IMG/VR virus record: IMGVR_UViG_3300022188_000006
Coordinates: 92,276-156,275 of that record
DNA: 64,000 nt
Direction: 5' to 3' (one strand)
Source: a virus
The translations under genes were made by a program, and so were the position numbers. Shown piece by piece: positions 7,829 to 60,856 of this stretch (positions within the stretch are counted from its first letter, which is position 1; each line of letters opens with the position of its first letter). The notes beneath the pieces were generated by a model. The model had not been told where the DNA came from. It saw nothing but the letters and a program-made list of their open reading frames with translations, and searched no databases.

Positions 7829-9712
7829 CTACACAACGATGACGTTCTGAACGTACTTCGCCGAATCAAAAGGGTTCACAACGAAATCAGGAACGTCTAC
7901 AGCAACCTCGTTCAGACCATCTTCATCGAACTTCCTAGCCATCGCGCGCCGTTGTTTCTCTGCCTTTTTTGCTTCGAGCAACCGCGTTTGCACCTCAGCA
8001 GCGGACGCCTTCTCGATGTCTGGACCAAATTCGTCCTCGAAACGGAAATTCATCATGAGACACATGAGCGCGTCTGGTCCGTGATCCTTCTTCTTTAGGA
8101 TGGCACCGGTAGTCTCGGACCTACGGTAAGCCTTCAGTTGCTCGATTAGTATTTCCAGTGCCTTGTTTATGCGTATGCGCCTGAACACGAAGTACTTCGA
8201 AACATTTTCAATGCCTATCTTCTTCCATGTCCCGAAATTTATCGGCCGCACATCAAAACCAGCGCTAGAGAGTTCCGCGTTGTTGAATGGGTGAGACGAG
8301 TCTGCCAATACGGGGAACTCGCCAAACAGTGTCTTCCAATCGCGCAACTTTGTAGCTACATCGGAGACCAGCACGTGGTCTGTAAACTCAGCCTCATGGA
8401 TATAAACACATTCCCTCGTGCGTATCCCCAGGATCATCACCATGCTTCCCTGAGACTGAATACCCCAGTCGATACCAACCGCCGCCCTATCCACCGCACT
8501 GTCGATAAGGATAGGATCAGTAAGAGAAGCCTCAATCAGCTCAGGTGCATAGACGCAAGACGAATACGACGGGCGTTCGCAGGCAAACTCGGTCTCAAAG
8601 ACGGTCGTCCCGGCATTCATCTCCTTAGCTTCTGACACCATTTTGAAGGTGGCCCAGCCGTCACTGTGGCGCGCCTTTCCGTAACACCCCTTAAATACCT
8701 CTGTCTTCTTACCATCGGGACCATCCACCAAAACCCTGTCCGTCAAATAGCACCTCTTGCAGTACTCAAGAGCTTCCGGATCATCCTCCGTCGCCTCTTC
8801 GAGACCCCTCGTGCATCGTTCCATAGTATCAAACACGTTCCAGTTGTACCGCTGAAATCCCTTCTCCCTGTAACCATCCCAATACTCTTGGAACAGGCCG
8901 TGCGGTATATGGAACGTAGAAAACAAGCACACAATTGAATCCGGCTCTGACAGCGCGCCCTGCAAAGCAGCCCGCATCGCCTTTTCGACTCTGCGGTCCT
9001 CCTGGCAAACCTCGTCCACAAAAATTGTCCCAAAGTGCTTGCCGCGTCCTTGTTTCTCCGTCGCCGGCACACACTTCAAGAGAACACCTGTCACCAACCG
9101 GGTGACATCAGAAAGCGGATCGCCGAGCAGGAGACCGTCACGCAACCCGGGCACAGCATCCCAGAACATCTTCACGTAGTCATAAACAACTTTCGACTGT
9201 TCCCCCGAACCTGCCACATCCAGTATTTCCCGCTTCCAGTAGATGAGGAGCAACCAGATCAGCACAGCAGCCGAAAGAGATCCACCGCCACCACGCGGCT
9301 TCCAAGTGATCGTCTTTCGAACTCGACCAAAAAACACGTCGCCGACCCATTTGATGATCGGCGGAATGAGCTTCACATAGGTCTTTTTGCCGTCCTTAAT
9401 TACGTATAAGGTTTCCCCGACAAATGATGCAAGCCTTTCGTGTTGCCGCTTTATGTATGCTTCTTCACTTTCTTCGTATCCCAAGGGCTCGCGAACCCAG
9501 CCGTCTGTCACGTGCCAGCCTTTTTCGGCAGCCGTAACGGCGCTCATCTCTGGATCATAGACACCCTGCTTGAAGCCACGGGGAAACAGCAGATCAGGCA
9601 AACCGTAAGCACCCGGATATCCCCTTGCGAGACGATCCCTGATCTCTCGCTCAAGCAGCAGAAGCTGTCGTAGCTTCTCCTCTTTGCTTTGGCTCGCCTT
9701 ACGTTTTTTCAC
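7829..9712 (-). CDS. terL: Terminase large subunit
   Basis: Walker A-position WKPRGGGGS, RGKH, Walker B IFVDEV, STF coupling motif, RNase H-like VGIDWG and DHGPDA. Confidence 0.85.
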   Translation of the reverse strand: MKKRKASQSKEEKLRQLLLLEREIRDRLARGYPGAYGLPDLLFPRGFKQGVYDPEMSAVTAAEKGWHVTDGWVREPLGYEESEEAYIKRQHERLASFVGETLYVIKDGKKTYVKLIPPIIKWVGDVFFGRVRKTITWKPRGGGGSLSAAVLIWLLLIYWKREILDVAGSGEQSKVVYDYVKMFWDAVPGLRDGLLLGDPLSDVTRLVTGVLLKCVPATEKQGRGKHFGTIFVDEVCQEDRRVEKAMRAALQGALSEPDSIVCLFSTFHIPHGLFQEYWDGYREKGFQRYNWNVFDTMERCTRGLEEATEDDPEALEYCKRCYLTDRVLVDGPDGKKTEVFKGCYGKARHSDGWATFKMVSEAKEMNAGTTVFETEFACERPSYSSCVYAPELIEASLTDPILIDSAVDRAAVGIDWGIQSQGSMVMILGIRTRECVYIHEAEFTDHVLVSDVATKLRDWKTLFGEFPVLADSSHPFNNAELSSAGFDVRPINFGTWKKIGIENVSKYFVFRRIRINKALEILIEQLKAYRRSETTGAILKKKDHGPDALMCLMMNFRFEDEFGPDIEKASAAEVQTRLLEAKKAEKQRRAMARKFDEDGLNEVAVDVPDFVVNPFDSAKYVQNVIVV

Positions 9713-9760: not shown

Positions 9761-10711
9761 CTAGCCCTTCTTGCGGCCTCGCGCAGCCATCTGCTGGAAG
9801 CGCTTCTTCCCGTACTTGGCACGACCGAGACTGGCAGCCAAGGCAGCAGGGTTCTTCACGTCGCCACGCCGCCGCAGCTTGTCCTCCAAAGCCTCGAACC
9901 GGGCGCCTTCACCGGGAGGAGCTTTTGCCGAAGGCTCGCTCTTTCCGCCCTTCAGCGAACCGGGCTTGACCTTCCGTCCCTTACGGGTCTTCTCGATCTC
10001 GAAACCTGGGACCGACTCGTTCTCCTCGCAGAGGCTGTGCAGGATCTCATCCAGGGACTTCCCCGCGGCCGCCATCTCTTGGAACCGCTTCTTGCCCCAC
10101 TTTTTCCGGCCGATCCAAGCAGCCACGGCCTTCGGGTTCTTCACCCCGGGCTTCCCGCGAAGCTCCTCAACAAGCTCATCGAACCGCTTGCCACTGCCAA
10201 GCTTCGGCTTTTTCTTTTCCACCTTACCGTTCAGCGACTTGATCAGATCGTCCTCAGAAAACTCGACAGAAAAGCCGGCTTTGTTGACCCGAATATCCCG
10301 CAAACCCTGGGCAAACAGACCGATTGCCATGATCGCCTTGTGCGCAGCCTTCTCGCACTCAAGAATGAGCGAACGGACGCGATCAGCATCGCTGTCCAGC
10401 TCGTTCACGCTGTCACGGAGACGCTTGCCAACAAGCTCGGCCTGCCGACGAGTCCGGTCCATCTTCACGCCGGGAAGGGTTTCTGCCAGGTCGACGGCCT
10501 GGTCGACGAGGCCTGCACAGGCCAGCACCTTTGCTGCAGCACCGCGCCAGTCTCCCTTTCCGCGAAGCCCCTTGGCCATGTCCACGGCACTTAGAGCCTC
10601 CTCAACCATTGTCAGGAGCATCTCCTTCCTGGTCTTGTTCTTGCTCACCTTGGCGAGGCTCCCAAGAAAGCCCTTCTCAAGGTTCTCGCTCATTTCGTTT
10701 CTCATCGTCAT
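9761..10711 (-). CDS. Basic protein with two copies of a ~47-aa repeat
   Basis: RFxxLxxxL..VKNPxAxAAxxGRxKxGKKRFQxMAAxG occurs twice; RBS AGGAG. Confidence 0.75.
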   Translation of the reverse strand: MTMRNEMSENLEKGFLGSLAKVSKNKTRKEMLLTMVEEALSAVDMAKGLRGKGDWRGAAAKVLACAGLVDQAVDLAETLPGVKMDRTRRQAELVGKRLRDSVNELDSDADRVRSLILECEKAAHKAIMAIGLFAQGLRDIRVNKAGFSVEFSEDDLIKSLNGKVEKKKPKLGSGKRFDELVEELRGKPGVKNPKAVAAWIGRKKWGKKRFQEMAAAGKSLDEILHSLCEENESVPGFEIEKTRKGRKVKPGSLKGGKSEPSAKAPPGEGARFEALEDKLRRRGDVKNPAALAASLGRAKYGKKRFQQMAARGRKKG

Positions 10712-11375: not shown

Positions 11376-11520
11376 CCCTGATTTCTTTCGCTTCCTTCTT
11401 AGAAACAACACCGGTGCTCTCGGCACCGCTGATTACAGCGCCACGAATCTTTGCGGCATTCCCAGAACGTAGGTGCAGCGACGCCAGATCTCGAAGAACC
11501 TCAGACACAATCTTGTTCAT
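11350..11520 (-). CDS. Small hypothetical protein (56 aa, not in the ORF track)
   Basis: ATGA overlap with the 11517 stop; MNKIVSEVLRDLASLHLRSG...KASGKR*. Confidence 0.55.
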   Translation of the reverse strand: MNKIVSEVLRDLASLHLRSGNAAKIRGAVISGAESTGVVSKKEAKEIRDGKASGKR

Positions 11521-12137
11521 GCCTTCGCCTTCAGCATTAAGTCGCGTCTCTTAGCCAAGGATACCGAAATGTCGCCAAAAATCAACGAAACGCCGAGCCA
11601 GAATGTCTTCTCAGCGTCAGTAATCGTGACCGACGGACTGGCTCTCAGACCCCTACGGCCATACTTCACCGCAAACTTTTCCGCCTTGCAAACACGCTTG
11701 TTCAGATTTTTTGTCTCGGCACGCATCTCTCTCCAGACACTAGGCTTGAATCGTTTGCAGTTGGGATCCCGCTCGATCCTATCAAGCAGAGCTTTTACCT
11801 CTGCGATCAGCACATCGCGTTCCTTGGCAAAATGTGCACTCTTGAAACCTCCGGCACCGCCCCGGCTCAACTCCGTCAACTTCTGCAGTCGCCGTTGCAT
11901 CACGGCAAGTCTTCGCTTGGCAGCAGCTTTTACATGGTCGCCCCTCGGGGATTCCTCCTCTCCGCCTTTCTTGGAAGCTGTGTCTTTCTTGGGTCCTCGA
12001 TAGGGAACAATGTGTCCATTCGGAAGCTTAATGACCCGCTGTCCACCTTGCCGTGTCCAGATTTCTCCCACGCGCCGGCGGACCCATTTCTCCACCGCAA
12101 TCTCTGCCAAATCTACAGCCCAGCTATACTGTCTCAC
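11517..12137 (-). CDS. Basic hypothetical protein with VGE-x-W hairpin motif
   Basis: GTGA overlap; AVEK..RRVGEIWTRQGGQRVIKLPNG. Confidence 0.7.
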   Translation of the reverse strand: MRQYSWAVDLAEIAVEKWVRRRVGEIWTRQGGQRVIKLPNGHIVPYRGPKKDTASKKGGEEESPRGDHVKAAAKRRLAVMQRRLQKLTELSRGGAGGFKSAHFAKERDVLIAEVKALLDRIERDPNCKRFKPSVWREMRAETKNLNKRVCKAEKFAVKYGRRGLRASPSVTITDAEKTFWLGVSLIFGDISVSLAKRRDLMLKAKA

Positions 12138-12679
12138 GACAGGATCCTCACCGTAACCATGAATGCCATCGGGCGCTTCCCGCGGCGCCTGAATGCTCGC
12201 CCCTGAATCACATACTTGTTACCTTGGCTAAATACTCCTTCGGCTTCCTCCTTGAAACCGTCTGACAAAAGCGCATCTCGCAGATCTGCGATTCTGCGAC
12301 CAACATCCTCCTCTGCATCGCACACGACCGTGATATGGTAGGTATCCCCTCTATGTGCAGAGGGGGAGAGCCGACAGCCGCCCCTCCAGCCGCCCATCTT
12401 CCGCGCGATTCTTGAGGCGAACCGTCTGATCCCGGCATCGCTTTCCTTCACCACACGCTCAATAGCAGCATTAAAGGCGAATAGTTCTTCGGTGGCCAAA
12501 TCCTTCCCATAGTCATCGCAGTCTTCGCACTTTTTCACGACGCCCCAAGCCATTTTGTGGCACAAAGCGTCGTCTTTATGTCGCTCGTAGCAGCTGTTGA
12601 ATACCTCCACCCACTGCCGCTGCTTCTTCTCGCTAAGGCCTCTTAGCTTGCTAGGTGGATTGTTCACGTCGTAAGGCAT
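12134..12679 (-). CDS. ChaB-domain protein with C-terminal extension
   Basis: MPYDVNNPP..L..KQRQWVEVFNSCY...CHKMAWGVVK matches the ChaB pattern; GGAGG before ATG 12679. Confidence 0.75.
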   Translation of the reverse strand: MPYDVNNPPSKLRGLSEKKQRQWVEVFNSCYERHKDDALCHKMAWGVVKKCEDCDDYGKDLATEELFAFNAAIERVVKESDAGIRRFASRIARKMGGWRGGCRLSPSAHRGDTYHITVVCDAEEDVGRRIADLRDALLSDGFKEEAEGVFSQGNKYVIQGRAFRRRGKRPMAFMVTVRILS

Positions 12680-13404
12680 GTTCCAGCCTCCCATTTCTTG
12701 AGGGTATCCTGACAAAACGCTGACAACCCCTCTAGTGCTGATGCAATACCGTTCTCCCGCGAAATAGCGGCAACACCGTGTCCGCGAGCACGCAATTCTC
12801 CCTCCGCAGGCTTCCGCCCGATGACATTGCCCTTCGCATCCATAAGGTAGGTGACACCGTGTCTCGTGACCTGTGCAGCCACACGCGGCAACTTCGTCCG
12901 CGTAGGCTTTTTCTTGGGATGCTCGGGCTTTCTCTCCGGTTTCTTTTCTGGTTTCTTCTCTGACTTTGCACTCGGAGCAGGCAGATTAGCTCGCCGTTCG
13001 CGCCGCTCGAACTCCTCTTTTAGTCTCTCTGGAACTTTGATCCCGTACTTTCCGAAATCTCTCGGATATATTGGCTGCCAAGACCCACCGATCTTCATAT
13101 GTGGCAATAGCCTCGCCCTCGGACCCGACCCGGTCCGATACCACTCGATTCGGCCCTCACTCGCGGGCTTCGGACGCTGGGTAGGACGGGCGCGGCCTTT
13201 CGGTTCCTCGTACACATATATCGGCTTCTTGCCGGGACGCTCGATCTTCCTCTTATATTTGTGTGGTCTCAGCCTCTGGGCAAATCCCATCACCCGGCTC
13301 ACGAAACCGGCCTTCAGTAGTTCCTCGCCGACGCCGCGCGACTTCGATACGTCGAAGACGAAGTCACACAGGGCCAGCAACACATCGAATCGCGCGTCGT
13401 TCAT
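12664..13404 (-). CDS. Basic hypothetical protein with leader and HKY hairpin motif
   Basis: LCDFVFDVSKS..ELLKA..HKYKRKIERPGKKPIYVY; ATGA overlap. Confidence 0.7.
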   Translation of the reverse strand: MNDARFDVLLALCDFVFDVSKSRGVGEELLKAGFVSRVMGFAQRLRPHKYKRKIERPGKKPIYVYEEPKGRARPTQRPKPASEGRIEWYRTGSGPRARLLPHMKIGGSWQPIYPRDFGKYGIKVPERLKEEFERRERRANLPAPSAKSEKKPEKKPERKPEHPKKKPTRTKLPRVAAQVTRHGVTYLMDAKGNVIGRKPAEGELRARGHGVAAISRENGIASALEGLSAFCQDTLKKWEAGTCLTT

Positions 13405-14243
13405 TTTCTTCTGCCGATAATCTGCGCGACACGCCGGACATCGCCCGGCGTATCAATCGAACCTGTCTCTTCAACCAGCTTCGCCAACTTCTTGAGGAAG
13501 TCTAGGTAATGATACCTTTCGAAGAGTTTGTAGCGCACGTTCTCCGGAAGAAGGTTCGGCGAGGGGTACTTTTTCAGTCCTCTCCGCGCTAGCTCTAGCT
13601 CACGCTTGAACGCTTCAAGCCTGTCGCGGTGGATGTCAGACATCTCTGCCGCCATTTCCTGCACAGCGGCATCGAGGTCCTTGATCCGCCTACGCAACTT
13701 CGCCGCAACCTCAGCACTATTCGATACCGAGAGAACATCCGCCAGTCGCTCAATATCGATCAGGCTGCGCCACGCCTCAGCCTTATCAGCATCAATTTGC
13801 CGAACATCACGTTTCCACTGATCATAAACATCCAGCAGACTCACGCCGATATCGGGACTTGTCTTCAGCCACTTCTTTCGCATCAAGTCGTAAACAGCGT
13901 CGTACTTGTCGAGGTCGGCACTTTCTAGGACGAAAAAGTTGATTGGATGCTGCGTCCCGGGAGCAAGCTTACCGCTAAGCCGTGTTGCATTCTCGACAAG
14001 TGCCAGCAAGGTCTCTGGATCGACGTCCACCACAATGGACACATCAATGTCCGACTCAGGATTATATCTGAGTCCGGTAATACTCCCGACCAGGTAAGCA
14101 GCGCGAGGCTTCACACCAAGCAGGAGTTTGCGTGCCTGCTGTCGAATCGCCCCCGCGATCTCCGGTCTGAGTACGTACCTGTCCCCGCGCTTGTACCAAA
14201 CAAGCGGGTCCAGTCCCGGCATCTTTTCATCTAATATGCTCAC
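13401..14243 (-). CDS. Pol-beta superfamily nucleotidyltransferase
   Basis: YLVGS-ITGLRYNPE-SDIDV; helical C-terminal domain. Confidence 0.8.
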   Translation of the reverse strand: MSILDEKMPGLDPLVWYKRGDRYVLRPEIAGAIRQQARKLLLGVKPRAAYLVGSITGLRYNPESDIDVSIVVDVDPETLLALVENATRLSGKLAPGTQHPINFFVLESADLDKYDAVYDLMRKKWLKTSPDIGVSLLDVYDQWKRDVRQIDADKAEAWRSLIDIERLADVLSVSNSAEVAAKLRRRIKDLDAAVQEMAAEMSDIHRDRLEAFKRELELARRGLKKYPSPNLLPENVRYKLFERYHYLDFLKKLAKLVEETGSIDTPGDVRRVAQIIGRRK

Positions 14244-14524
14244 GTCTGGGCCTTCGCTTTCTTTTCTTCTTCGAGGACTGACTCCATGACAAGGAGCGCA
14301 GAATAGTAATCCGGATACTCAGCCAAGTGATCCAACGCAATCTGAGTGGCCACGTCTCGCCTGTCCGTGTGCTCCATCTCGATCTCGATACCGATGGCCA
14401 GCTGAACCGGGTCGACATCTTGCTCGGTAACGCCCTTCTTTGCCGCCATCCCGTTTAGCAGTGGCCTAGTGTCTCCTCTGCTCGACGCCCTCTGTTCTAC
14501 CGCCTTTTGGATTTTGTCAAACAT
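14240..14524 (-). CDS. DUF5661-like protein
   Basis: GIEIEMEHT....A..IALDHLAEYPDYYS. Confidence 0.75.
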   Translation of the reverse strand: MFDKIQKAVEQRASSRGDTRPLLNGMAAKKGVTEQDVDPVQLAIGIEIEMEHTDRRDVATQIALDHLAEYPDYYSALLVMESVLEEEKKAKAQT

Positions 14525-14536
14525 TTTGCTTTCCTG

Positions 14537-15064
14537 TCAGTTGCGCCCAAGCGGATGCTGTGCCATGTCCAGCAGATCCGGACTGTCCTCTCCTACCAAG
14601 TCGTCCAACAATCGTTTCTTCAGTGCTGTTAGTTCTTCCAAGGACGCACGCTCAAGATCTACTCCCTCTATGATGTGCCTGGTCGTCGTCTGTGTTACAG
14701 CCTTGGGAACAACGCCAGCCTCCATAAGAAGACTGGTTCGACGATGCAGGGCCGAAAGGGCCTTGTCCAAAAACGCAGCTCGCTGATTGGCACTCGAAGC
14801 CAGCGAATACTCCGACATGGCGCACCGGTAAATCTCATCGTATTTTTGACAGGCTTCGGCGACCTCGGCAGGTGGCTCAGCGTTCGATGTCTTCTCTGCT
14901 TCCTCTGCCTTCCACTGCTTGATCCAGTTTTCCACGGTCTGCTCTGTGCAACCTACAGCCTCGGCTATGTCGCTCTTGCGTGCACCCCTGATGTAGAGAC
15001 GGATCACGCGATCCTTTAGCCGCTCCCTTTCCTGCTTTGACATAGGGCCACGTCGTCTAGCCAT
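14537..15064 (-). CDS. HTH protein, probable terminase small subunit
   Basis: N-terminal HTH (ARKSDIAEAVGCTEQTVENW), helical core, DLERASLEEL tail; upstream of terL. Confidence 0.6.
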   Translation of the reverse strand: MARRRGPMSKQERERLKDRVIRLYIRGARKSDIAEAVGCTEQTVENWIKQWKAEEAEKTSNAEPPAEVAEACQKYDEIYRCAMSEYSLASSANQRAAFLDKALSALHRRTSLLMEAGVVPKAVTQTTTRHIIEGVDLERASLEELTALKKRLLDDLVGEDSPDLLDMAQHPLGRN

Positions 15065-15068
15065 ACCG

Positions 15069-15572
15069 CTATCCTGCCATTTGCAAGGTGTCGCCTACCT
15101 GCCGAATCCGGCCGGACTTAACAAGTACCTCCACCACCTCAGGAGCAACAGGATTTCTTTTACCATCAACACGCACAAGTACCGGTTGCGTCCCCATGGC
15201 CCTGTGCACCATTGTTATCCTGGCGTCATTTTGCAGAAAGAACATGAGATGGTTCGGATTCCTTATGATTCTTCCATCTGGATAGATCGGGGATCTGGCT
15301 GTCGATAGAGTCTTTGTCCTCGGCTCAAACAGCGTTTCCTTTGACTCAGGTTCTTTTCCTGCTACAGGTTCGCTTTTGCTTCCAAGAACACCGAGAACCT
15401 TGTCCAGCGCCTGCTCCACTGCACGCTCAGCCACTGCTATGTTTAGAGCAGGCGCAATTCTAGTCTTTTGCTCCGCAGGTCCTTTGTCCGCAATGACCGC
15501 GGTCCCGGCAGCACGAAGATTTTCTCCGTCCCAGACAAAATTCGTCTCATTCTGAACCCGGCGCATTGGCAT
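15069..15572 (-). CDS. Hypothetical protein
   Basis: Fills the gap between kinase and HTH genes; start uncertain. Confidence 0.55.
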   Translation of the reverse strand: MPMRRVQNETNFVWDGENLRAAGTAVIADKGPAEQKTRIAPALNIAVAERAVEQALDKVLGVLGSKSEPVAGKEPESKETLFEPRTKTLSTARSPIYPDGRIIRNPNHLMFFLQNDARITMVHRAMGTQPVLVRVDGKRNPVAPEVVEVLVKSGRIRQVGDTLQMAG

Positions 15573-17430
15573 TCGTCCGAGGAACAATTCTGACCATCGA
15601 ACCACAAAAACTCAAGGGCAGATCCTGCACAAACTTCTCTGGGGTGTTCGTCGTAATTCGCTCGCCCAGGGGTCCCAGGTAACCGCCCATTACGTACTCC
15701 ACAAGCGGATTTTCCTCGCCGCTGAGCACCACAACCTTGTCACCCTTTAGGGCGATCTCCCCGACAAGCTTTTGGTCTTTTCCAGCACCGGTGTAGACCT
15801 GCATAATCTCAGCGTTCTCAGACTTCAATATGAAGTCCTCTAGTTGGCGCAGAGCCATCGCAACAGTAGCCATCTCTGCCGCGTGTGGTTTCGGTTTAGG
15901 TGGCTTAGGTGTCTGGAGAGACCTTGCTCCCATGGCAAGCTCTACCATGTTCAACGTGCGAGGTAACCTGCCTTTCTCCTTTATTCGCCTAAGACGCGCA
16001 ATGACACCGTTGGCTTCCTTACCTAGGCCCCATTTTTCCAAGGTTTTCTTTAGTTGTCCCTCGTCTACTTTTTGCAGCTGCGAGACGATCCGCTTGTCTA
16101 TCTTCCCGCCGTTGTACTCATGGGAAAGCCAGTGAGGCACAGACGTAAAACCGTGAAAATCGCCTCGTTCATCACTGATCGGGAAGTTGAACCCATTGTC
16201 GATCGCGAATGCTTGCTTTCGGTCAGCACTGACCAAGTAATTCCCGAAGTGCCTGTCTGTGGCCCCTGTAAGGTAGTCAAAGACGGCCATTTTTTCCACG
16301 GAAAACCTGAAATCAGGATCGTTTTCGAAGTGCATCTGCGTCTTCGCCCGTGAAAAGTCACTCCCGCTCATAGCCCCTTCGACAAAATGCTGCCTAGAAG
16401 CAGAAGCCTCCGGATTCAGTGCAGCCTCTTGCAGTTCCTTCAAGGCTTCTTTTGAGAGCTTATTTTCCTTGTAAGCAGCCTGGAGTTCTGGGTGCATCAG
16501 AACCTGCTTGACAACCCTTGCTCTATCCTCGGCCGCTACCTGCGTCTTTGTCTTTACTGTTGGCGGGACAATGCCGAAACCCAGCAACCTGTCCACCTCA
16601 AAAGCCGCCGCTTCGCGCGCCCCCACCGACACTTTTTCGTTGAGAATACCACGCCGCATGAAACTAATCGGTGGACCAAGTCCATCCGGCTTTGTTACGC
16701 TCTTGCTGCCATCAGGTGCCTGATCGAAGTAAACCAGTGTTCGGCTGTCAATGCCTGCTTGCTCCCGTTTCACCGGGTCAGAGCGCAGAGCTTTTTCTAC
16801 TTGCTCTAGGTGTCCTTCCCAAGGAGCTGACGAGAGTGCACCCTTCTTGTAAACAAAATCTCCCCATCCCGTCTCTTCGTCGTGCTTGGCCGGACCGGCC
16901 TCCCTCTCATCCAGCTTGTCGAGTTTTTCTGCTATCTCCCGCAATATGCCGTAAGCTTTCTGGATCTGCTCGGCATCCCCTTTCTTGAATCCATCACGCA
17001 AAAGCTGAGCAAACTCCTTCGCCCGTGTGCTAATCTGTTCCAGGACCTTCTTCTGATGCTCAGTAGTAGCCTTGGTTTTCATTTCGCGGAACCGCTCACC
17101 GAACTTCTTCATTAGTTCGGCAGACTTCCGCTTCAGGTCCGGTGTTGCCTGCCTCGACGATCTCAACTGTCGGACAACGCTCTCGACCTCCTGGGCCAGC
17201 TTCGATGTCTTCGGGGACGGCCCTGCCACGGTCTCAGTCTTTGCGCCCTTGGGCGGCGTGTCCGAATACTCATAGGTACCATCGGGCAATTTACGCCGCC
17301 AGAGATGGCGCTTCCTGCCCGTGCGTCCCTCTGGGTCTGGGGGCTCCCAATCACCGACCTTCGCTTTCAATAGCAGGCTAAACTGCGTCAGCGATTCAAC
17401 GATGGCTTCCCTGGAAAGATCCGCGATCAC
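15547..17430 (-). CDS. Multidomain protein: leader, hairpin, helical region, PI3/PI4-kinase-like domain, C-terminal partner-like domain
   Basis: SVTKP, AREAAAFEVDRLLGFGIVPPTV, FDYLTGATDRHFGNYL, AFAIDNGFNFP. Confidence 0.85.
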   Translation of the reverse strand: MIADLSREAIVESLTQFSLLLKAKVGDWEPPDPEGRTGRKRHLWRRKLPDGTYEYSDTPPKGAKTETVAGPSPKTSKLAQEVESVVRQLRSSRQATPDLKRKSAELMKKFGERFREMKTKATTEHQKKVLEQISTRAKEFAQLLRDGFKKGDAEQIQKAYGILREIAEKLDKLDEREAGPAKHDEETGWGDFVYKKGALSSAPWEGHLEQVEKALRSDPVKREQAGIDSRTLVYFDQAPDGSKSVTKPDGLGPPISFMRRGILNEKVSVGAREAAAFEVDRLLGFGIVPPTVKTKTQVAAEDRARVVKQVLMHPELQAAYKENKLSKEALKELQEAALNPEASASRQHFVEGAMSGSDFSRAKTQMHFENDPDFRFSVEKMAVFDYLTGATDRHFGNYLVSADRKQAFAIDNGFNFPISDERGDFHGFTSVPHWLSHEYNGGKIDKRIVSQLQKVDEGQLKKTLEKWGLGKEANGVIARLRRIKEKGRLPRTLNMVELAMGARSLQTPKPPKPKPHAAEMATVAMALRQLEDFILKSENAEIMQVYTGAGKDQKLVGEIALKGDKVVVLSGEENPLVEYVMGGYLGPLGERITTNTPEKFVQDLPLSFCGSMVRIVPRTNANAPGSE

Positions 17431-17645
17431 TAGGCGCTAACCTCCCTAACAGCCCCGTCTTCAACAGGAACGACAGGGAAACCAAGAAACTCCTCCGGCA
17501 TAATAAGAGGTTCGCGCTCAAGAATCGGAACGAGTACCGTCCGGCCGTCCGCGCCTTTCCCTACACCAACAGACCGGGCTACCTTTACCTCTCTGTTTAT
17601 GCGCTGGAGCAGTTTCTGTGCGGCAACACGTTCTTCGTTGGTCAT
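17430..17645 (-). CDS. Small protein resembling protease pro-region-like domains
   Basis: SVGVG...VLV...MPEEFLGFPVVPVEDGAV. Confidence 0.55.
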   Translation of the reverse strand: MTNEERVAAQKLLQRINREVKVARSVGVGKGADGRTVLVPILEREPLIMPEEFLGFPVVPVEDGAVREVSA

Positions 17646-17646
17646 T

Positions 17647-18840
17647 TTACGGAATCACTTTCATCAATTGCTTCTCGAAATCAACCAGAGTCTTTTGAAC
17701 TGCTTTCTCGATCAACCCCCTCGGATCCTCGAAAGATTTCCCAGCAGACAAACGGGCGTGCAAACCAGCTGTCATCCGCTCGATGTTAAACTCTTCGCGA
17801 AGGTCGTCTTCGTCATCCTTGAACATAATGATTTTCAGTAGATTTTCGAATTGTTCAGGCGAAAGCTTTTCCATCTGCCGCTTTACCCTATTGAACTCCC
17901 GCATGTTCCTGTAATTTTGGGGATCCATACCATCCAGGAAATCGCGCTTCAACTGCTCTTTTGTCCTCCCCCTTCCACGCCTGCCCAGACTAAGTTTGAA
18001 GTACCCCATTTCGCTCATTAGGCTGTTCAGCAGCTCTTGTTCCTTTTCTGTCAATTTCACCCCAGCAGCCTTCAGAGCTTCTAAGTATCTCCGCTTTGAT
18101 TCTTTTGTCATGTGATCCGCCAAACCAGTGGCCTGTCGCAGCTGCATCACAAGCTTCGTGCCTCGTTTCCGCCCAGTCGGCTCCCAATCCTGCTTTTCCT
18201 TCGCGCCCTTCTTACCTACCTTCTTCATGTACTCGTCGTAAGCCTTCGAGCCACGTCGCACACGAACGATGGTGCCGTCCTTCCTCTTCGTCCATAGAGC
18301 CATGCCGCGTCCCTCAAAGCCAGACTTGGCCCACCAGAATTCCCCGACCTCGCGACGCTTCCGCGGCCCCGTCCGCCCGGCCTGGCCTGTTCCCTTCCCG
18401 CTTGTACCGAGCTTCAAGGCTCTTTTGCGCTGTTGCTTCGTAGTATAGCGTGGCTTCTTCGACTTGACTTTTTTGGGCTTTGCCTTTGCTTTTGCCTGCG
18501 CCCGCTTTTGCTGCATCAGCTTTGCCTTCGTCTTCCCGGACAGCTTGCGTTCTCTCTTTCCGGGTATCTTCCGCGGACGACCCTTGATGCCAACATCGCC
18601 GCCTCGCATGCTAGGCCCAACCGGCGCCTTCCCAAGCTTGATGAGTTCCTCTTCCTCATTCGCAATGAACTCATCTCCTACCCCGGCCATCTGGGCGACC
18701 GACGGGAGCGAGAAAGCGGAAGCCAAATCCCCAGCTTCTTTGCCAAGGACAATGTCCACAGCTCGCTTCTCAGGCAAGTCCTTTTCCTTTCGCCGACGCA
18801 CTGCCTGCTCCAGAATCTCCAACGTTTCGAAAAGCGCCAT
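17647..18840 (-). CDS. Highly basic Lys/Arg-rich protein with VGE-x-W hairpin
   Basis: Start moved to ATG 18840 (AAGGAG); REVGEFWW...LWTKRKDGTIV. Confidence 0.75.
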   Translation of the reverse strand: MALFETLEILEQAVRRRKEKDLPEKRAVDIVLGKEAGDLASAFSLPSVAQMAGVGDEFIANEEEELIKLGKAPVGPSMRGGDVGIKGRPRKIPGKRERKLSGKTKAKLMQQKRAQAKAKAKPKKVKSKKPRYTTKQQRKRALKLGTSGKGTGQAGRTGPRKRREVGEFWWAKSGFEGRGMALWTKRKDGTIVRVRRGSKAYDEYMKKVGKKGAKEKQDWEPTGRKRGTKLVMQLRQATGLADHMTKESKRRYLEALKAAGVKLTEKEQELLNSLMSEMGYFKLSLGRRGRGRTKEQLKRDFLDGMDPQNYRNMREFNRVKRQMEKLSPEQFENLLKIIMFKDDEDDLREEFNIERMTAGLHARLSAGKSFEDPRGLIEKAVQKTLVDFEKQLMKVIP

Positions 18841-18851
18841 CTGCCGCTCCT

Positions 18852-19064
18852 TTACGAACAAAGAGAATGAATGATCTCCTCCGTTCTTATCCTGCGTATC
18901 ACAATCTGCTTTCCAGCCCAGAGACTGGGTAAAGCTTCTCCGACAGGCTCCAACGCACCCGTGACCCACACGTACCACTTATTTGGGCGTTCTTCAACGA
19001 ATACTACGCCCGTCGTGGCACTGAGGGCCAGTTTATACAGATCCGTAGCGACCTTACTGTTCAT
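18852..19064 (-). CDS. Small hypothetical protein, weakly similar to 17430-17645
   Basis: YVWV...LPSLWAGKQIVI; overlaps the SOD stop. Confidence 0.5.
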   Translation of the reverse strand: MNSKVATDLYKLALSATTGVVFVEERPNKWYVWVTGALEPVGEALPSLWAGKQIVIRRIRTEEIIHSLCS

Positions 19065-48750: not shown

Positions 48751-48996
48751 TTAAACGACTACGTGCTTGTCCGGTATTCTGGTGATTTCTGGCTTGGTAA
48801 TCGTGAGTATTGTGAGATTGATCAGTCTCTGCGCCCGTTTTACCGAGTAAAGGAATGGGTCTGGTTCGTATGGAGGTGAGTAGTAGATGAAGTGCTTATT
48901 CAGTAACTGTTCGAGTTGTTTGTCTTCGCTTTCCCATCTGAACTCGCCATCGCGGCCAAAGAAACACAGGCTTGAGTCAATCTGAACGGCGACCAT
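48751..48996 (-). CDS. Small protein, putative immunity partner of the zincin
   Basis: TGATG coupling to 48996-50003; WESEDKQLEQLLN..YEPDP. Confidence 0.6.
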   Translation of the reverse strand: MVAVQIDSSLCFFGRDGEFRWESEDKQLEQLLNKHFIYYSPPYEPDPFLYSVKRAQRLINLTILTITKPEITRIPDKHVVV

Positions 48997-50003
48997 CACA
49001 GCCCCCTTATGCAGGAAATCACGAGGTCGAAGAACTCCGGGTCCTGCGAAGCAAACTCCTGCGGGTCATACATGAGTCGTTCCATGCCGCAGGAGAGCAC
49101 TTCCATGCCAGCTCCTTCTTCTGTGTCTCCTTCCGACTTGCCATACAATCTGCCTGTGTACTCGCGTCCGCCCTTTTCTACCCATTTGTCCGGTTTGTAT
49201 CTGTATTTTCCAATTAGCGGTGATGTTTCCTCTATGACCTCGTCGTCTTTGGTCCTTTCATGGAAGAAGCGCTCAACAGCGTCTCTGATAGCTTTGTTCT
49301 GATGCCATAAGTGGTGCATGTACTCGTGATAAAGGTCATCTTCGGTTTTGTCTATGGTGGCCTCCTTGGCGTAGGCTAGCAATATGACCGGTCCCTCGTA
49401 ATCCACTGGATCATTGCGTGTCCCTCGTTTTCCCCGAGCGTCGTACAGGCTGAACCTGTCTACGTCAATACTGACCGGTTTTGTCTCCAACTGGGAGAAA
49501 ACATCTGCGGAGATCATCCTGGAAAGCGTTTCCATAGCAGGCGCAATTTTTGCCATCCTAGCTTTCGCCAATTCAGGATTGGGCAACCACTCGTGCCGCA
49601 ACTTGATGGCATCGCTGAGTGGTTTTCGCTCCAATTTGGCCGGGTCCCTCACGGAAAGGCTGGCTACTAGGCGCCTTCTTCTCAAAGCGTCTGCTGCTTG
49701 GAACTCTGCAGCGGCTTGAAGGGCAGTCACACTGTCAACCTTTCCTGCGGCTTGTCCCTCAGAAGCACGTTCGTAGTTTTCCTTTGCCTGGCGGTACTCG
49801 GCAACTTCCTCTGGTGTCATATAATTCGCGAGGTCAGAAGCGAAATCCAGGAAATGCTCCCGGACCTGGGAAGGAGATTGTATCTTCTTGGCAGTTGCTT
49901 CGGAAACGCGCGTCCAGCCGGTATCGGTGCGGACCCATGGCTCGGGTTTCCCGCCGGGGCCAGTCTTCCAGTTTCTGATTTCGCCTACACGAGCCGGTTT
50001 CAC
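48996..50003 (-). CDS. Zincin-like metallopeptidase with N-terminal VGE hairpin motif
   Basis: HEYMHH; EVLSCGME; YTGRLY; N-terminus ARVGEIRNWK..WVRTDTGW. Confidence 0.75.
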   Translation of the reverse strand: MKPARVGEIRNWKTGPGGKPEPWVRTDTGWTRVSEATAKKIQSPSQVREHFLDFASDLANYMTPEEVAEYRQAKENYERASEGQAAGKVDSVTALQAAAEFQAADALRRRRLVASLSVRDPAKLERKPLSDAIKLRHEWLPNPELAKARMAKIAPAMETLSRMISADVFSQLETKPVSIDVDRFSLYDARGKRGTRNDPVDYEGPVILLAYAKEATIDKTEDDLYHEYMHHLWHQNKAIRDAVERFFHERTKDDEVIEETSPLIGKYRYKPDKWVEKGGREYTGRLYGKSEGDTEEGAGMEVLSCGMERLMYDPQEFASQDPEFFDLVISCIRGL

Positions 50004-51124
50004 GCGGCACTCGCCTCCGCAAGAAGAGCTTCGGCCAGGGTCGGCCGTTCCCAGGAATAGAACCCGGGATGACCGAAGTGCCCATAGACCGAGGTATCAT
50101 AGTAGATGGGCTTGCGCAAATCAAGACACTTGATAATCCCGGTAGGGCTGAGGTCAACCATCTCCGGAAGAACGCGGGAAAGTATGGAATCCATCTCGCG
50201 TCCGGCGTCGGTCTTCACAAAAACGGACAGGGGCCGCTCGACGCCAATCGCATAGGAAAGTTGAACTTCGCACTCCCCTGCGAGTCCTGCAGCGACAACA
50301 TTGAGGGCCAGCCAGCGGGCCATGTAGGCGGCGGACCTGTCGACCTTTGTGGGGTCCTTGCCGGAAAATGCGCCACCACCATGGCGCGCCCAGCCACCAT
50401 AGGTGTCGACGATGATCTTCCGACCTGTCAGCCCGCAGTCACCAGCAGGCCCACCAATAACGAACTTGCCGGTTGGATTGATGAGAACCCTCTTCGGCTG
50501 GAAGTAATCCTGGAAGACCTGGTCTATGACGGGCTGCAGCAGGTCGGGAACGTGCTTGGTAAGATCGGGATGATGTTGGACGCTGACGAGCAAACTCTCC
50601 ACCGAGACGGGGTGATTATCATCGTCGTAGGCAACGATAATCTGGACCTTGCCATCGGGCCAGATGCCATGAATGTCCGCTTGGTCAATGGCCCGACAAA
50701 GACGCTGGCAGAGGTAAATGGGCAGCGGCATGTAAGCGGTCGTCTGGTTGGTCGCGTAACCGAACATGAGGCCCTGATCGCCAGCTCCACCGGCATCAAC
50801 CCCCTGAGCAATGTCTCTGGACTGGGCGACCAACTTCGACGCTACGGGAAGCGTCTCCGGGTCCATTCCATAGCTTGCTTCGGTATACCCGGCGTCGGAA
50901 AGAACGGAATGAACAACGACGGCGGGGTCGACTTTTCCTGCGGAAGTGACTTCTCCGGCGACAACGGCCAGATGGCCGGTGATCATGGTTTCGCAGGCTA
51001 CTCTGGACAGCGGATCCTGCTCAAGGAGAGCATCCAGGACACCATCGGAAATGGAATCGGCCAGCTTGTCCGGATGACCGCGACGCACACACTCTGAAGC
51101 AAACAGAAAGCCATTGTTATTCAT
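50000..51124 (-). CDS. metK: S-adenosylmethionine synthetase
   Basis: GHPDK, GAGDQG, DGK, GLTGRKIIVDTYGG, GGGAFSGKDPTKVDRS; start ATG 51124. Confidence 0.97.
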   Translation of the reverse strand: MNNNGFLFASECVRRGHPDKLADSISDGVLDALLEQDPLSRVACETMITGHLAVVAGEVTSAGKVDPAVVVHSVLSDAGYTEASYGMDPETLPVASKLVAQSRDIAQGVDAGGAGDQGLMFGYATNQTTAYMPLPIYLCQRLCRAIDQADIHGIWPDGKVQIIVAYDDDNHPVSVESLLVSVQHHPDLTKHVPDLLQPVIDQVFQDYFQPKRVLINPTGKFVIGGPAGDCGLTGRKIIVDTYGGWARHGGGAFSGKDPTKVDRSAAYMARWLALNVVAAGLAGECEVQLSYAIGVERPLSVFVKTDAGREMDSILSRVLPEMVDLSPTGIIKCLDLRKPIYYDTSVYGHFGHPGFYSWERPTLAEALLAEASAA

Positions 51125-51392
51125 TGCCTTGCTCCTTGTTTTTGTGCTCAACACCGTCCGGGCCAACGATGTCGAACATCTTCTGCTCGTCGTAATCAGG
51201 TTTGCGTTTCTTGAACTCCTCGTAGGCCCACTGGACGAAGCGGTAGAGCACTCGCGGGCGACTGGTGCCCAGGAAACGGGCGACAGCAGAAATAATGACG
51301 TAAGTTTCTGCATCGACGTTGAGGGTGCGATTCCGATATCGCTTCGGAGCGCGCAATAACTCGTCGAGGTGATCCGTGTGTTGTTCGGTCAT
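51117..51392 (-). CDS. Small ribbon-helix-helix-like protein
   Basis: RTLNVDAETY..IS..A..LG.SR..VL; RBS GAAAGG. Confidence 0.5.
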   Translation of the reverse strand: MTEQHTDHLDELLRAPKRYRNRTLNVDAETYVIISAVARFLGTSRPRVLYRFVQWAYEEFKKRKPDYDEQKMFDIVGPDGVEHKNKEQGNE

Positions 51393-59783: not shown

Positions 59784-60020
59784 CTAGTCGTCCCTAACTC
59801 CAAGGTGATCAAGTACCTGCCGAGCCATCGCGGGGTTGTATCTGAGGATCATCTTAACGAGTGTGGTAAGGTCGTCAGCATCCAGGATGACATCTCCGAG
59901 GCTCCTGAATTCGACTTCACCGGTGCTGGCATCGAAGAAAACAACGAGATCCGGCTCGCCCTCCTTACCACTGGTGAAAGTGATAGAACTAATCACGGGT
60001 TTCTCCTTTTCCATGCCCAT
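59784..60020 (-). CDS. Small hypothetical protein
   Basis: ORF in operon. Confidence 0.5.
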   Translation of the reverse strand: MGMEKEKPVISSITFTSGKEGEPDLVVFFDASTGEVEFRSLGDVILDADDLTTLVKMILRYNPAMARQVLDHLGVRDD

Positions 60021-60856
60021 ATTCCGGGCGGATCCTTGCTTTCTTCTATGGTGCCGTCGGGCCTGAGCCGGTACCAGTACCCGCTCTTGGCTTCTTTTCC
60101 GACATGTAGCGCCTTGCATATCATTCGTTTAGTGTGCCCGTTCCAGGTGGCTAGCAAAATACAGCCCTCTTGCCCGGCCGAAGCCCAACCTCCATGAACA
60201 GCAACGGCTACGCCGTAGTGACCTGGAGCGGCGGCGCATCCGTCATCAGCGAGCGCACAAGCGTGGCCCGCTGTGCCCTCAGCCAGCGCACAGCTGGACG
60301 ATCCAGCAACAACCGCGTGACTTTGGTAGCCGGTAGCTCTGGCTCCGCTCTCATCACCGCTTGCCAGGGCGTGTGCGCGCCAGCCCTTGGCCAAAGCCTT
60401 GGACTCATCTTGCTTGACATGGGCGTGCTCGTAATCCCCGGAAGTGCGGGAACGACCCCTGTAGGCATTCTCCCCGTAACCGACAATACAAGCCGGATCC
60501 GGGGCGTAACGAGCAAGGAAAGCCGTCGCACTGCGCCGAGTACCGATGTGGACAATGCGGCAGCGTTTACACTTGGCGCCTATCTCCATGTCGACCAATG
60601 GCTTGTGCACTGCCAACACCAGCCAAACGCTCCCACGACGCCAGTTCAGGAGGCTGTAACTCCCTTTGCCCCATGGCAGGTAGTAGAGGCCGTCCCAGTA
60701 CTTATTTGTCGCCGTCCACTTTTCGGCGTGTACCCAGGCACCAACCTTTAGGGGCCATATCATACCTTCGGGGCCGATGCCTTCGGAACTTACGCTTTTT
60801 AACCCGAGCAGTGCATCGCCTGGGAGACGGTTCCAGCTTTTTCCCCGAGGTTTCAT
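59993..60856 (-). CDS. Phage protein with Ala/Gly-rich beta-helical repeats
   Basis: Repeated AxAxGxxxx; C-terminal WYRL..DG; RBS GGAGG. Confidence 0.65.
   Translation of the reverse strand: MKPRGKSWNRLPGDALLGLKSVSSEGIGPEGMIWPLKVGAWVHAEKWTATNKYWDGLYYLPWGKGSYSLLNWRRGSVWLVLAVHKPLVDMEIGAKCKRCRIVHIGTRRSATAFLARYAPDPACIVGYGENAYRGRSRTSGDYEHAHVKQDESKALAKGWRAHALASGDESGARATGYQSHAVVAGSSSCALAEGTAGHACALADDGCAAAPGHYGVAVAVHGGWASAGQEGCILLATWNGHTKRMICKALHVGKEAKSGYWYRLRPDGTIEESKDPPGIWAWKRRNP

Follow-up and report, generated by a model that had tools for sequence, protein, structure and literature searches.

A ~30-residue module ahead of polyvalent protein units in phages, and its possible role in the handling of capsid cargo

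The window analysed here comprises 64,000 nucleotides, the final 64 kb of a single 156,275-bp IMG/VR phage record (IMGVR_UViG_3300022188_000006; 89% complete according to CheckV), in which nearly all genes lie on the minus strand. A preliminary description of the window had proposed that a small β-hairpin module, carried by unrelated proteins behind a lysine (Lys) site, is an address label, which raises the question of whether the segments concerned are related at all and, if so, what the shared element does. The carriers are termed A, C, D and E, with a related hairpin in B. The segment in E is a copy of a module of ~30 residues whose family we hold to be very probably real; its strongest copies in this genome lie outside the window, in four tandem kinases, K1–K4 (genome 27998–33660). 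On balance we favour, with caution, the reading that this unannotated module stands ahead of polyvalent cargo units as a handle that is retained beside a likely cut site.

The module is defined by the consensus [hydrophobic]-x-K-[G/A]-[K/R]-x-[Y/F]-P-V-G-[T/E]-[V/I]-R-x-W-x-x-G-x3-K-x2-[D/N]-G-x-W-x-P-V, in which R, W, K and W are invariant (G-[T/E]-[V/I]-R-x-W ... K ... [D/N]-G-x-W) and the G positions are nearly so. It is usually basic, with a mean net charge of +3.8 per 30-residue core. An AlphaFold2 model of K2 residues 36–95, computed from a 12-sequence alignment, has a mean predicted local distance difference test score (pLDDT) of 75, with 83–89 in the core, and contains five strands, of which those at IRRW, GLHIKL and EWFPYD correspond to the module. 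The model depicts the module as a three-strand β meander that would be extended to five strands in the kinases. Strands 4 and 5 form an extra K-x-x-D-G-x-W-V hairpin like that of strands 2 and 3, which suggests an internal repeat. The repeating hairpin unit is the 'K/R-x-x-(D/N)-G' half of the pattern in the preliminary description, and it accounts for the similar segments of B, D and a 287-residue protein described below.

No significant structural neighbour of the K2 module model was found with Foldseek in the PDB (best E-value 0.49), with VIA-align (Z ≤ 2.5) or in BFVD (best E-value 0.27), and the modelled fold can be named only as a 'small β meander'. Structure prediction, one of the checks proposed at the outset, gave three strands for the module in both K2 and A and no named fold. 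In sequence comparisons, six module segments matched no Pfam-A family at E ≤ 10, no Pfam family covered the module positions of the giant carriers from other phages, and a module profile had no match among PDB sequences. The module lies outside all Pfam, NCBIfam and PDB sequence entries and appears to be undescribed within these libraries.

The kinases K1–K4, paralogues of the kinase-like protein C, were reached by BLAST from A and B, which led to the N-termini of four tandem genes at 26.7–33.8 kb of the genome. They carry 'G-T-I-R-R-W-x-D-G-L-H-I-K-L-K-G-E-W-F-P-Y' and were found at 6e-8 to 5e-6 by a profile of six copies taken from one foreign contig; in a word-indexed search, the K2 module region matched only itself. 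Within the window, the verified copy is that of E:

48996–50003, minus strand: gene for E, 335 residues, with a C-terminal HExxH motif ('HEYMH').
49893–50000, minus strand: verified module copy of E, residues 2–37, at the extreme N-terminus.

Compared with a profile that excluded E, this segment gave an hhalign P-value of 4e-7 (probability 93%), and hidden Markov models (HMMs) built only from foreign copies matched it at independent E-values (iE) of 4e-5 and 5e-5, the latter with a model of the 'G-E-I' subtype alone that covered E residues 3–35. BLAST matched E to both copies of the foreign protein P0018 and to the foreign protein P0031 at 4e-4 to 4e-3. The E copy has an insertion of 5–6 residues in its first turn; E and K1–K4 keep all invariant and near-invariant positions, and E can be placed in the family with little doubt. 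The firm carriers in this phage are K1–K4 and E, with C, A and B as probable degenerate ones and D as a doubtful one.

The C-terminal domain of E (phrog_33618) matches Geobacillus phage GBK1 at 1e-6 (tblastn), and the matching GBK1 protein combines PF04233 (MuF) with a C-terminal 'HEVGH'. E had no match in the PDB; the HExxH domain may represent a polyvalent-type metallopeptidase without a Pfam model. Its homologues, noted from 48996–50003 and L002 941–2803, are the C-terminal domains of 'head morphogenesis' proteins with MuF in GBK1, Bacillus phage vB_BpsS-36 and Planktothrix phage PaV-LD. A protein that reads as S-adenosylmethionine synthetase-like is encoded directly downstream of E (50000–51313, minus strand).

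An exhaustive search of a nine-segment profile against 1.84e9 representative proteins, at a cut-off of E ≤ 1e-3, returned 17 matches, namely eight proteins of this phage and nine foreign clusters. The foreign clusters comprise five kinases of ~500 residues, with the module at the same N-terminal place; a 94-residue protein (P0015, on an 860-bp contig) that is possibly a fragment and for which no stand-alone module is claimed; P0018; and two doubtful entries. The latter are a repeat protein with four repeats (P0016, contigs of 36–219 kb) and a 1805-residue protein with no matched stretch (P0010), both treated as spurious or unclear. In P0018 (826 residues) the order is module, metallopeptidase-like domain ('HEMGH'; Peptidase_Mx1, 4e-4), module and kinase-like C-terminus.

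P0031 (1124 residues), which came from the word-indexed search, has three module copies and may be read as module, ART-like domain, module, ART-like domain, module and topoisomerase IB, the ART-like assignments being R/S/ExE patterns seen by eye and the topoisomerase a match to PF01028 at 1.4e-12. Its IMG/VR contig (L003) encodes, in order, a carrier, the portal protein, two open reading frames (ORFs), P0031 and a ParB-like carrier; the upstream ORF has two module copies and the downstream ParB-like ORF of 1201 residues has one. The same contig encodes, at 14248–18993, a protein of more than 1582 residues with an SNF2 helicase domain, reminiscent of polyvalent proteins of the P1 DarB type.

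A profile of the six L003 copies retrieved 11 IMG/VR loci, whose giant ORFs range from 570 to more than 2000 residues with 1–5 copies each; whole records hold 1–8 copies, and three of the records are complete genomes. Pfam domains in the giant carrier ORFs include InPase, ddrB-ParB, ART-PolyVal, DUF5661, C5-methylase and topoisomerase IB (Topoisom_I). At least two unrelated effector domains, hallmark ones included, were taken to define a polyvalent protein, and such proteins are P0018, P0031 and ORFs of L010, L012 and L014. By the same domain test the carriers of the present phage are not polyvalent, each being a single-unit gene; its units are separate genes and not one polyprotein. Module copies tend to sit ahead of enzyme domains, directly so in L014, where a module at residues 12–39 precedes a methylase at 51–218 and another at 1028–1060 precedes a topoisomerase at 1084–1281. 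The HMM search that had been suggested for finding fusion partners thus recovered a family fused to kinase, metallopeptidase-like, ART-like, topoisomerase IB, methylase and ParB-like domains, and left A, C and D unmatched.

Carriers lie near portal or major capsid protein genes in L003, in G001–G004 and in Leptospira phage LE1, a gene context that fits a cargo-related label. Phage LE1 is cultured, and its gene LE1-0025 has two module copies ('Q-V-G-E-I-R-T-W'); among cultured phages other than LE1, no sequence match to the module was found. LE1-0025 (L018 2396–5053, 885 residues) stands directly after the capsid gene and is annotated as a 'tail protein', a label that may be wrong; the product may instead be a cargo protein.

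The placement of the module relative to a Lys residue is conserved in the polyvalent proteins. Among 27 polyvalent-type copies, K stands at position −7 in 20, and [G/A] at −6 combined with a hydrophobic residue at −9 occurs in 18. The stretch ahead of this junction often reads as an amphipathic L..[L/F]..F helix, and a helix of this type, with Lys at its end, also opens K1–K4, C, B and A as well as the foreign kinases. First copies in polyvalent proteins lie 5–20 residues from the initial Met and so look like the product of the proposed cut. The core of the original idea, a portable β module fused to unrelated proteins behind a Lys site, holds for the verified family.

Further instances of a Lys motif in this phage, hydrophobic-E-K↓[S/A], are at residue 10 of the major capsid protein and at several boundaries of a 625-residue protein encoded after the portal gene. 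They are consistent with a head protease specific for Lys, the residue after which HK97 gp4 cleaves. The HK97-fold capsid protein (PF05065, 3.9e-6; genome 83612–84973, L006 5614–6975, minus strand) begins 'MDQNELLVEK↓S', and its first 10 residues are possibly a propeptide that ends in the Lys motif. The 625-residue protein is encoded outside the window, between the portal and capsid genes (genome 85027–86904, L006 7028–8905, minus strand). It consists of a globular N-terminus of ~190 residues with 'LLDNH', an extremely acidic, Glu-rich region at ~240–360 and a helical tail, with several hydrophobic-x-K↓S/A sites. It had no family match, and its N-terminal 202 residues had no match in the PDB; from its position and the 'LLDNH' stretch, we infer that it may be a protease–scaffold fusion.

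In the mechanism that we propose, each unit would begin with an amphipathic L..L..F helix ending in hydrophobic-x-K, and a head-maturation protease would cut at this site in the prohead. The basic, aromatic module would be left ~5 residues from the new N-terminus and retained on the released unit, where it might act as a handle by which the unit stays associated with the packaged DNA or the ejection path and would thereby leave the capsid with the genome. That the module has some role in the handling of cargo seems reasonably likely; that it is specifically a retention or ejection handle is a tentative proposal. In each of the six module-bearing records examined, the portal is of the HK97 type (PF04860) and MuF is absent (PF04233, scanned with a cut-off of E ≤ 1 for five foreign records and of E ≤ 10 for this genome; control genomes matched), and no match to the MuF, S78 or ClpP families of Pfam was found anywhere in the 156-kb record. 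Together with the position of the E module, at the place that MuF has in GBK1, this suggests that the module may be a functional counterpart of the MuF header, a correlation that is based on six records. The most far-reaching version, a universal ride-along handle in a large group of MuF-less phages with HK97-type portals that binds DNA or the exit channel after the Lys cut and determines co-injection, is unlikely; if true, it would provide a portable tag with which any chosen protein could be loaded and delivered.

Several observations weigh against a retained cargo handle. One foreign copy has a net charge of −2, so that basic charge is no invariant of the family; kinase-type copies have no K at −7, and a Pro/Lys-rich linker of ~30 residues stands between them and the leader; and no prohead protease was identified by Pfam in this record (PF04586 and PF00574 negative). 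Polyproteins already inside a capsid, moreover, would need no address on each unit, which favours a role at the junction itself: the module could be a P′-side docking element or structural stop that presents hydrophobic-x-K↓G/A to the protease, and may mark the boundary of a recombination unit, with no function after release. Approximately one module per junction, six residues past the conserved K-[G/A], agrees with such a cassette, as do the higher copy numbers in records with larger multi-domain carriers and the Lys motifs at the start of the capsid protein and within the 625-residue protein. Many first copies, however, are at the extreme N-terminus, where there is nothing to cut off, E has 'MKPAR' directly before its module, and the kinase-type copies are remote from the Lys site. 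To our knowledge, the known prohead proteases (T4 gp21, phiKZ gp175 and HK97 gp4) need no such exosite. We regard the cassette, the main rival to a retained handle, as rather improbable. Still less probable is a role after injection, in which a small nucleic-acid- or protein-binding domain in the style of SH3, WW, Tudor or cold-shock domains would localize the enzymes to a common host target and take no part in virion loading. The surface, which is basic and aromatic and in which R, K and two W residues are conserved, would suit binding, and the module occurs on DNA-acting enzymes (topoisomerase, methylase and ParB) as well as protein-acting ones, but neither the structural nor the Pfam searches above matched it to a binding domain, and its strict placement at unit starts beside the Lys site would be left unexplained.

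A retained handle is the reading that we carry forward for the verified family, and the remaining question is whether the other segments of the window belong to it. All peptides quoted in the preliminary description are present in the sequence; the coordinates given with them (11517, 17647, 15547, 48996 and 12664) are the low ends of minus-strand ORFs and not the sites of the motifs, which are as follows for A to D, together with the look-alike in the 287-residue protein.

11991–12083, minus strand: candidate divergent copy in A, residues 19–49 of a 206-residue orphan protein (hhalign P = 0.034).
13060–13170, minus strand: probable copy in B, residues 79–115 of a 246-residue protein ('GRIEWYRTG...PHMKIGGSWQPIYP'; hhalign P = 0.031).
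13207–13263, minus strand: hairpin originally flagged in B, 'HKYKRKIERPGKKPIYVY', from sequence reading, with no significant match.
17254–17370, minus strand: degenerate N-terminal module region of C, residues 21–59 of 627 (hhalign P = 0.018).
17647–18978, minus strand: ORF of D, 443 residues.
18250–18360, minus strand: look-alike in D, residues 207–243 of the 443-residue ORF (hhalign P = 0.045, in a different register).
60026–60085, minus strand: hairpin look-alike 'YWYRLRPDGTIEE' at the C-terminus of a 287-residue protein (59993–60856).

The carriers are mutually unrelated, as had been claimed: A is an orphan (also in the word-indexed search), C is PI3/4-kinase-like (PF00454, 5e-11), D is a basic orphan and E is the HExxH protein. 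In a full-length kinase alignment, 'HLWRRKLPDGTYEY' of C, not 'VGDW', falls on the module of the paralogues, so that C looks like a decayed copy; it keeps only the second half of the pattern, and by position its membership is likely. Of the conserved positions, A retains G, G, K, G and P-Y; its W is shifted by two residues towards the N-terminus relative to the family, and the R is missing. An AlphaFold2 model of A residues 8–62 has three strands (IWT, RVIK and IVP) in the aligned columns, with a core pLDDT of 76–78, and its membership is plausible. In B, another site is more module-like than the flagged hairpin, which looks like the generic K-x-x-(D/N)-G-x-W-x-x-V unit found behind the module in the kinases as well. 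This second site, placed at residues 84–118 in the comparisons, has BLAST matches to P0011, a foreign kinase (0.003), and to K2 (0.031), and it is probably through this site that B belongs. D has retained V-G-E, K-x-x-D-G and the final strand and contains eight inserted residues; its membership is doubtful. It had no match among phages, and an ESM Atlas search with residues 203–256 gave no usable feature match, only template-modelling scores of ~0.5 to miscellaneous small proteins. Databases hold D in a 397-residue form that starts at Met47 ('MALFETLEIL...'), where the gene probably begins. Approximately 100 residues ahead of the D hairpin are almost purely Lys, Arg, Ala and Gln, which suggests a histone-like internal protein. 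The 'YWYRLRPDGTIEE' hairpin is 52% identical to C over 21 residues, with an HMM iE of 0.079 that is not significant.

It is possible, as a minority view, that A, C and D and the hairpins of B and the 287-residue protein are products of convergence and chance, arising from a common hairpin grammar (an aromatic/basic strand, a D/N-G turn and another strand) in proteins rich in Lys, Arg and Gly, and that only E and the kinases are genuine. None of A to D was matched by the foreign-only HMMs (A, C and D scored below 1 bit), leave-group-out HMMs gave iE of 0.01–0.5, and the whole-protein similarity of A to D was reached by 25 of 100 shuffles, so that the shared module of the preliminary description is mostly unproven. 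The same grammar occurs in choline-binding repeats, which are present among the weak Foldseek rows. Profiles from the four segments originally compared retrieved nothing else significantly, and gave an hhalign P of 0.019 against K1–K4; HMMs built only from these segments or only from K1–K4 are too narrow, leaving omitted members at iE of 0.08–5. Chance is countered by the number of occurrences of the pattern in the proteome, 3–4 compared with 0.01–0.07 in 300 composition-preserving within-protein shuffles, a post hoc test that is biased because the pattern was derived from the same data. The four hhalign P-values listed above (0.018–0.045) combine to ~5e-4 (Fisher, by hand calculation), although HH-suite P-values on 35-column profiles of so short a module may be poorly calibrated. 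MAFFT placed nine segments of this phage in one register; a genafpair alignment was inconsistent and gave way to an anchored alignment and this MAFFT run. In hhalign, A aligns over the full length of the module in the family register, 'VEK' at −9 to −7 and the P-Y end included, and the three strands of A and the position of C, given above, also speak against convergence. The original observation is thus partly confirmed, E belonging to a significant external family and the homology of A, C and D not being demonstrable, and its interpretation is partly supported.

The flagged region extends from the small terminase gene to beyond that of the large terminase (TerL):

7829–9712: TerL.
14537–15064: small terminase (helix-turn-helix / Terminase_5).

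It encodes the PI3/4-kinase-like protein C, nucleotidyltransferase-like, ChaB-like and DUF5661 proteins and several basic orphans. The polyvalent-related domains of the window (kinase, nucleotidyltransferase, DUF5661 and ChaB) are thereby in separate genes, and the genes for the portal (PF04860), the very acidic 625-residue protein and the HK97-fold capsid protein are ~13 kb from the flagged region. TerL had no relatives among GenBank phages or in IMG/VR. In a 316-residue protein (9761–10711, minus strand), which had no Pfam or PHROG match, a unit of ~30 residues, 'KNP-x-A-x-AA-x-[IL]GR-x-K-[WY]-GKKRFQ-x-MAA-x-G', is present twice. The window further encodes an Fe/Mn superoxide dismutase (PF02777/PF00081; 19054–19803, minus strand) and, at 2–2191 on the minus strand, an ORF of at least 730 residues with strong collagen triple-helix repeats (PF01391, 3.6e-82), which is probably a fibre.

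How phage protein cargo is chosen, processed and injected is understood in few models, namely the T4 capsid-targeting sequence (CTS), P1 DarB and MuF/gp7. In the 156-kb phage described here, the possible head cargo comprises a set of kinases, one metallopeptidase-like protein and several basic proteins. A compact module marking the starts of cargo units in many uncultivated phages would let such cargo be recognized in metagenomes, including orphans such as A, B and D, and it would offer a concrete peptide for work on capsid loading, cleavage and delivery that is present in the cultivable phage LE1. Even as a cleavage-junction element only, the module would map the unit boundaries of polyvalent proteins.

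Among small β modules, WW domains, choline-binding repeats (CW_binding_1), SH3-like domains and cold-shock strands are similar to the module in having ~30 residues, three antiparallel strands, Gly-rich turns and aromatic residues, and the K-x-x-D/N-G-x-W-x-x hairpin follows the same grammar. Unlike WW and CW_binding_1, the module is matched by no Pfam family at E ≤ 10 and by no structure significantly; the WW consensus differs in its W spacing (12–13 residues) and in the conserved R and K of the module. Among cargo signals, the CTS of T4 internal proteins and Alt is cut by gp21. It is thus coupled to a prohead-protease site, as is proposed here for the leader helix and Lys site. The T4 CTS is removed by cleavage, in contrast to the module, whose position past the putative cut would leave it on the mature protein. 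In P1 DarB, itself a polyvalent protein, the N-terminal 30 residues are a capsid-targeting sequence (PMC9024508), and the module shares with the DarB and T4 signals the form of a short N-terminal element. Those signals are on proteins that are loaded into the head and injected, whereas here targeting is proposed from gene context.

A further comparison is with phage-type polyvalent proteins, which have N-terminal header domains such as MuF and ArdC-N (Iyer, Burroughs, Anand, de Souza and Aravind 2017, PMC5512222). The LPD families of that work that are present in Pfam did not match the module. As in those proteins, module carriers hold ART-PolyVal, ddrB-ParB, InPase, kinases and nucleotidyltransferase-type neighbours near portal and head genes; in contrast to them, the units of the present phage are separate genes. 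Capsid-delivered polyvalent proteins, the DarB signal and the T4 CTS form a class of systems that is already known. The module differs from the MuF header in its much shorter length of ~30 residues, in its repetition before internal units and in occurring in six records from which PF04233 is absent, and it resembles the header in taking the N-terminal place that MuF has in other phages, of which GBK1, with an E-type domain fused to MuF, is an example.

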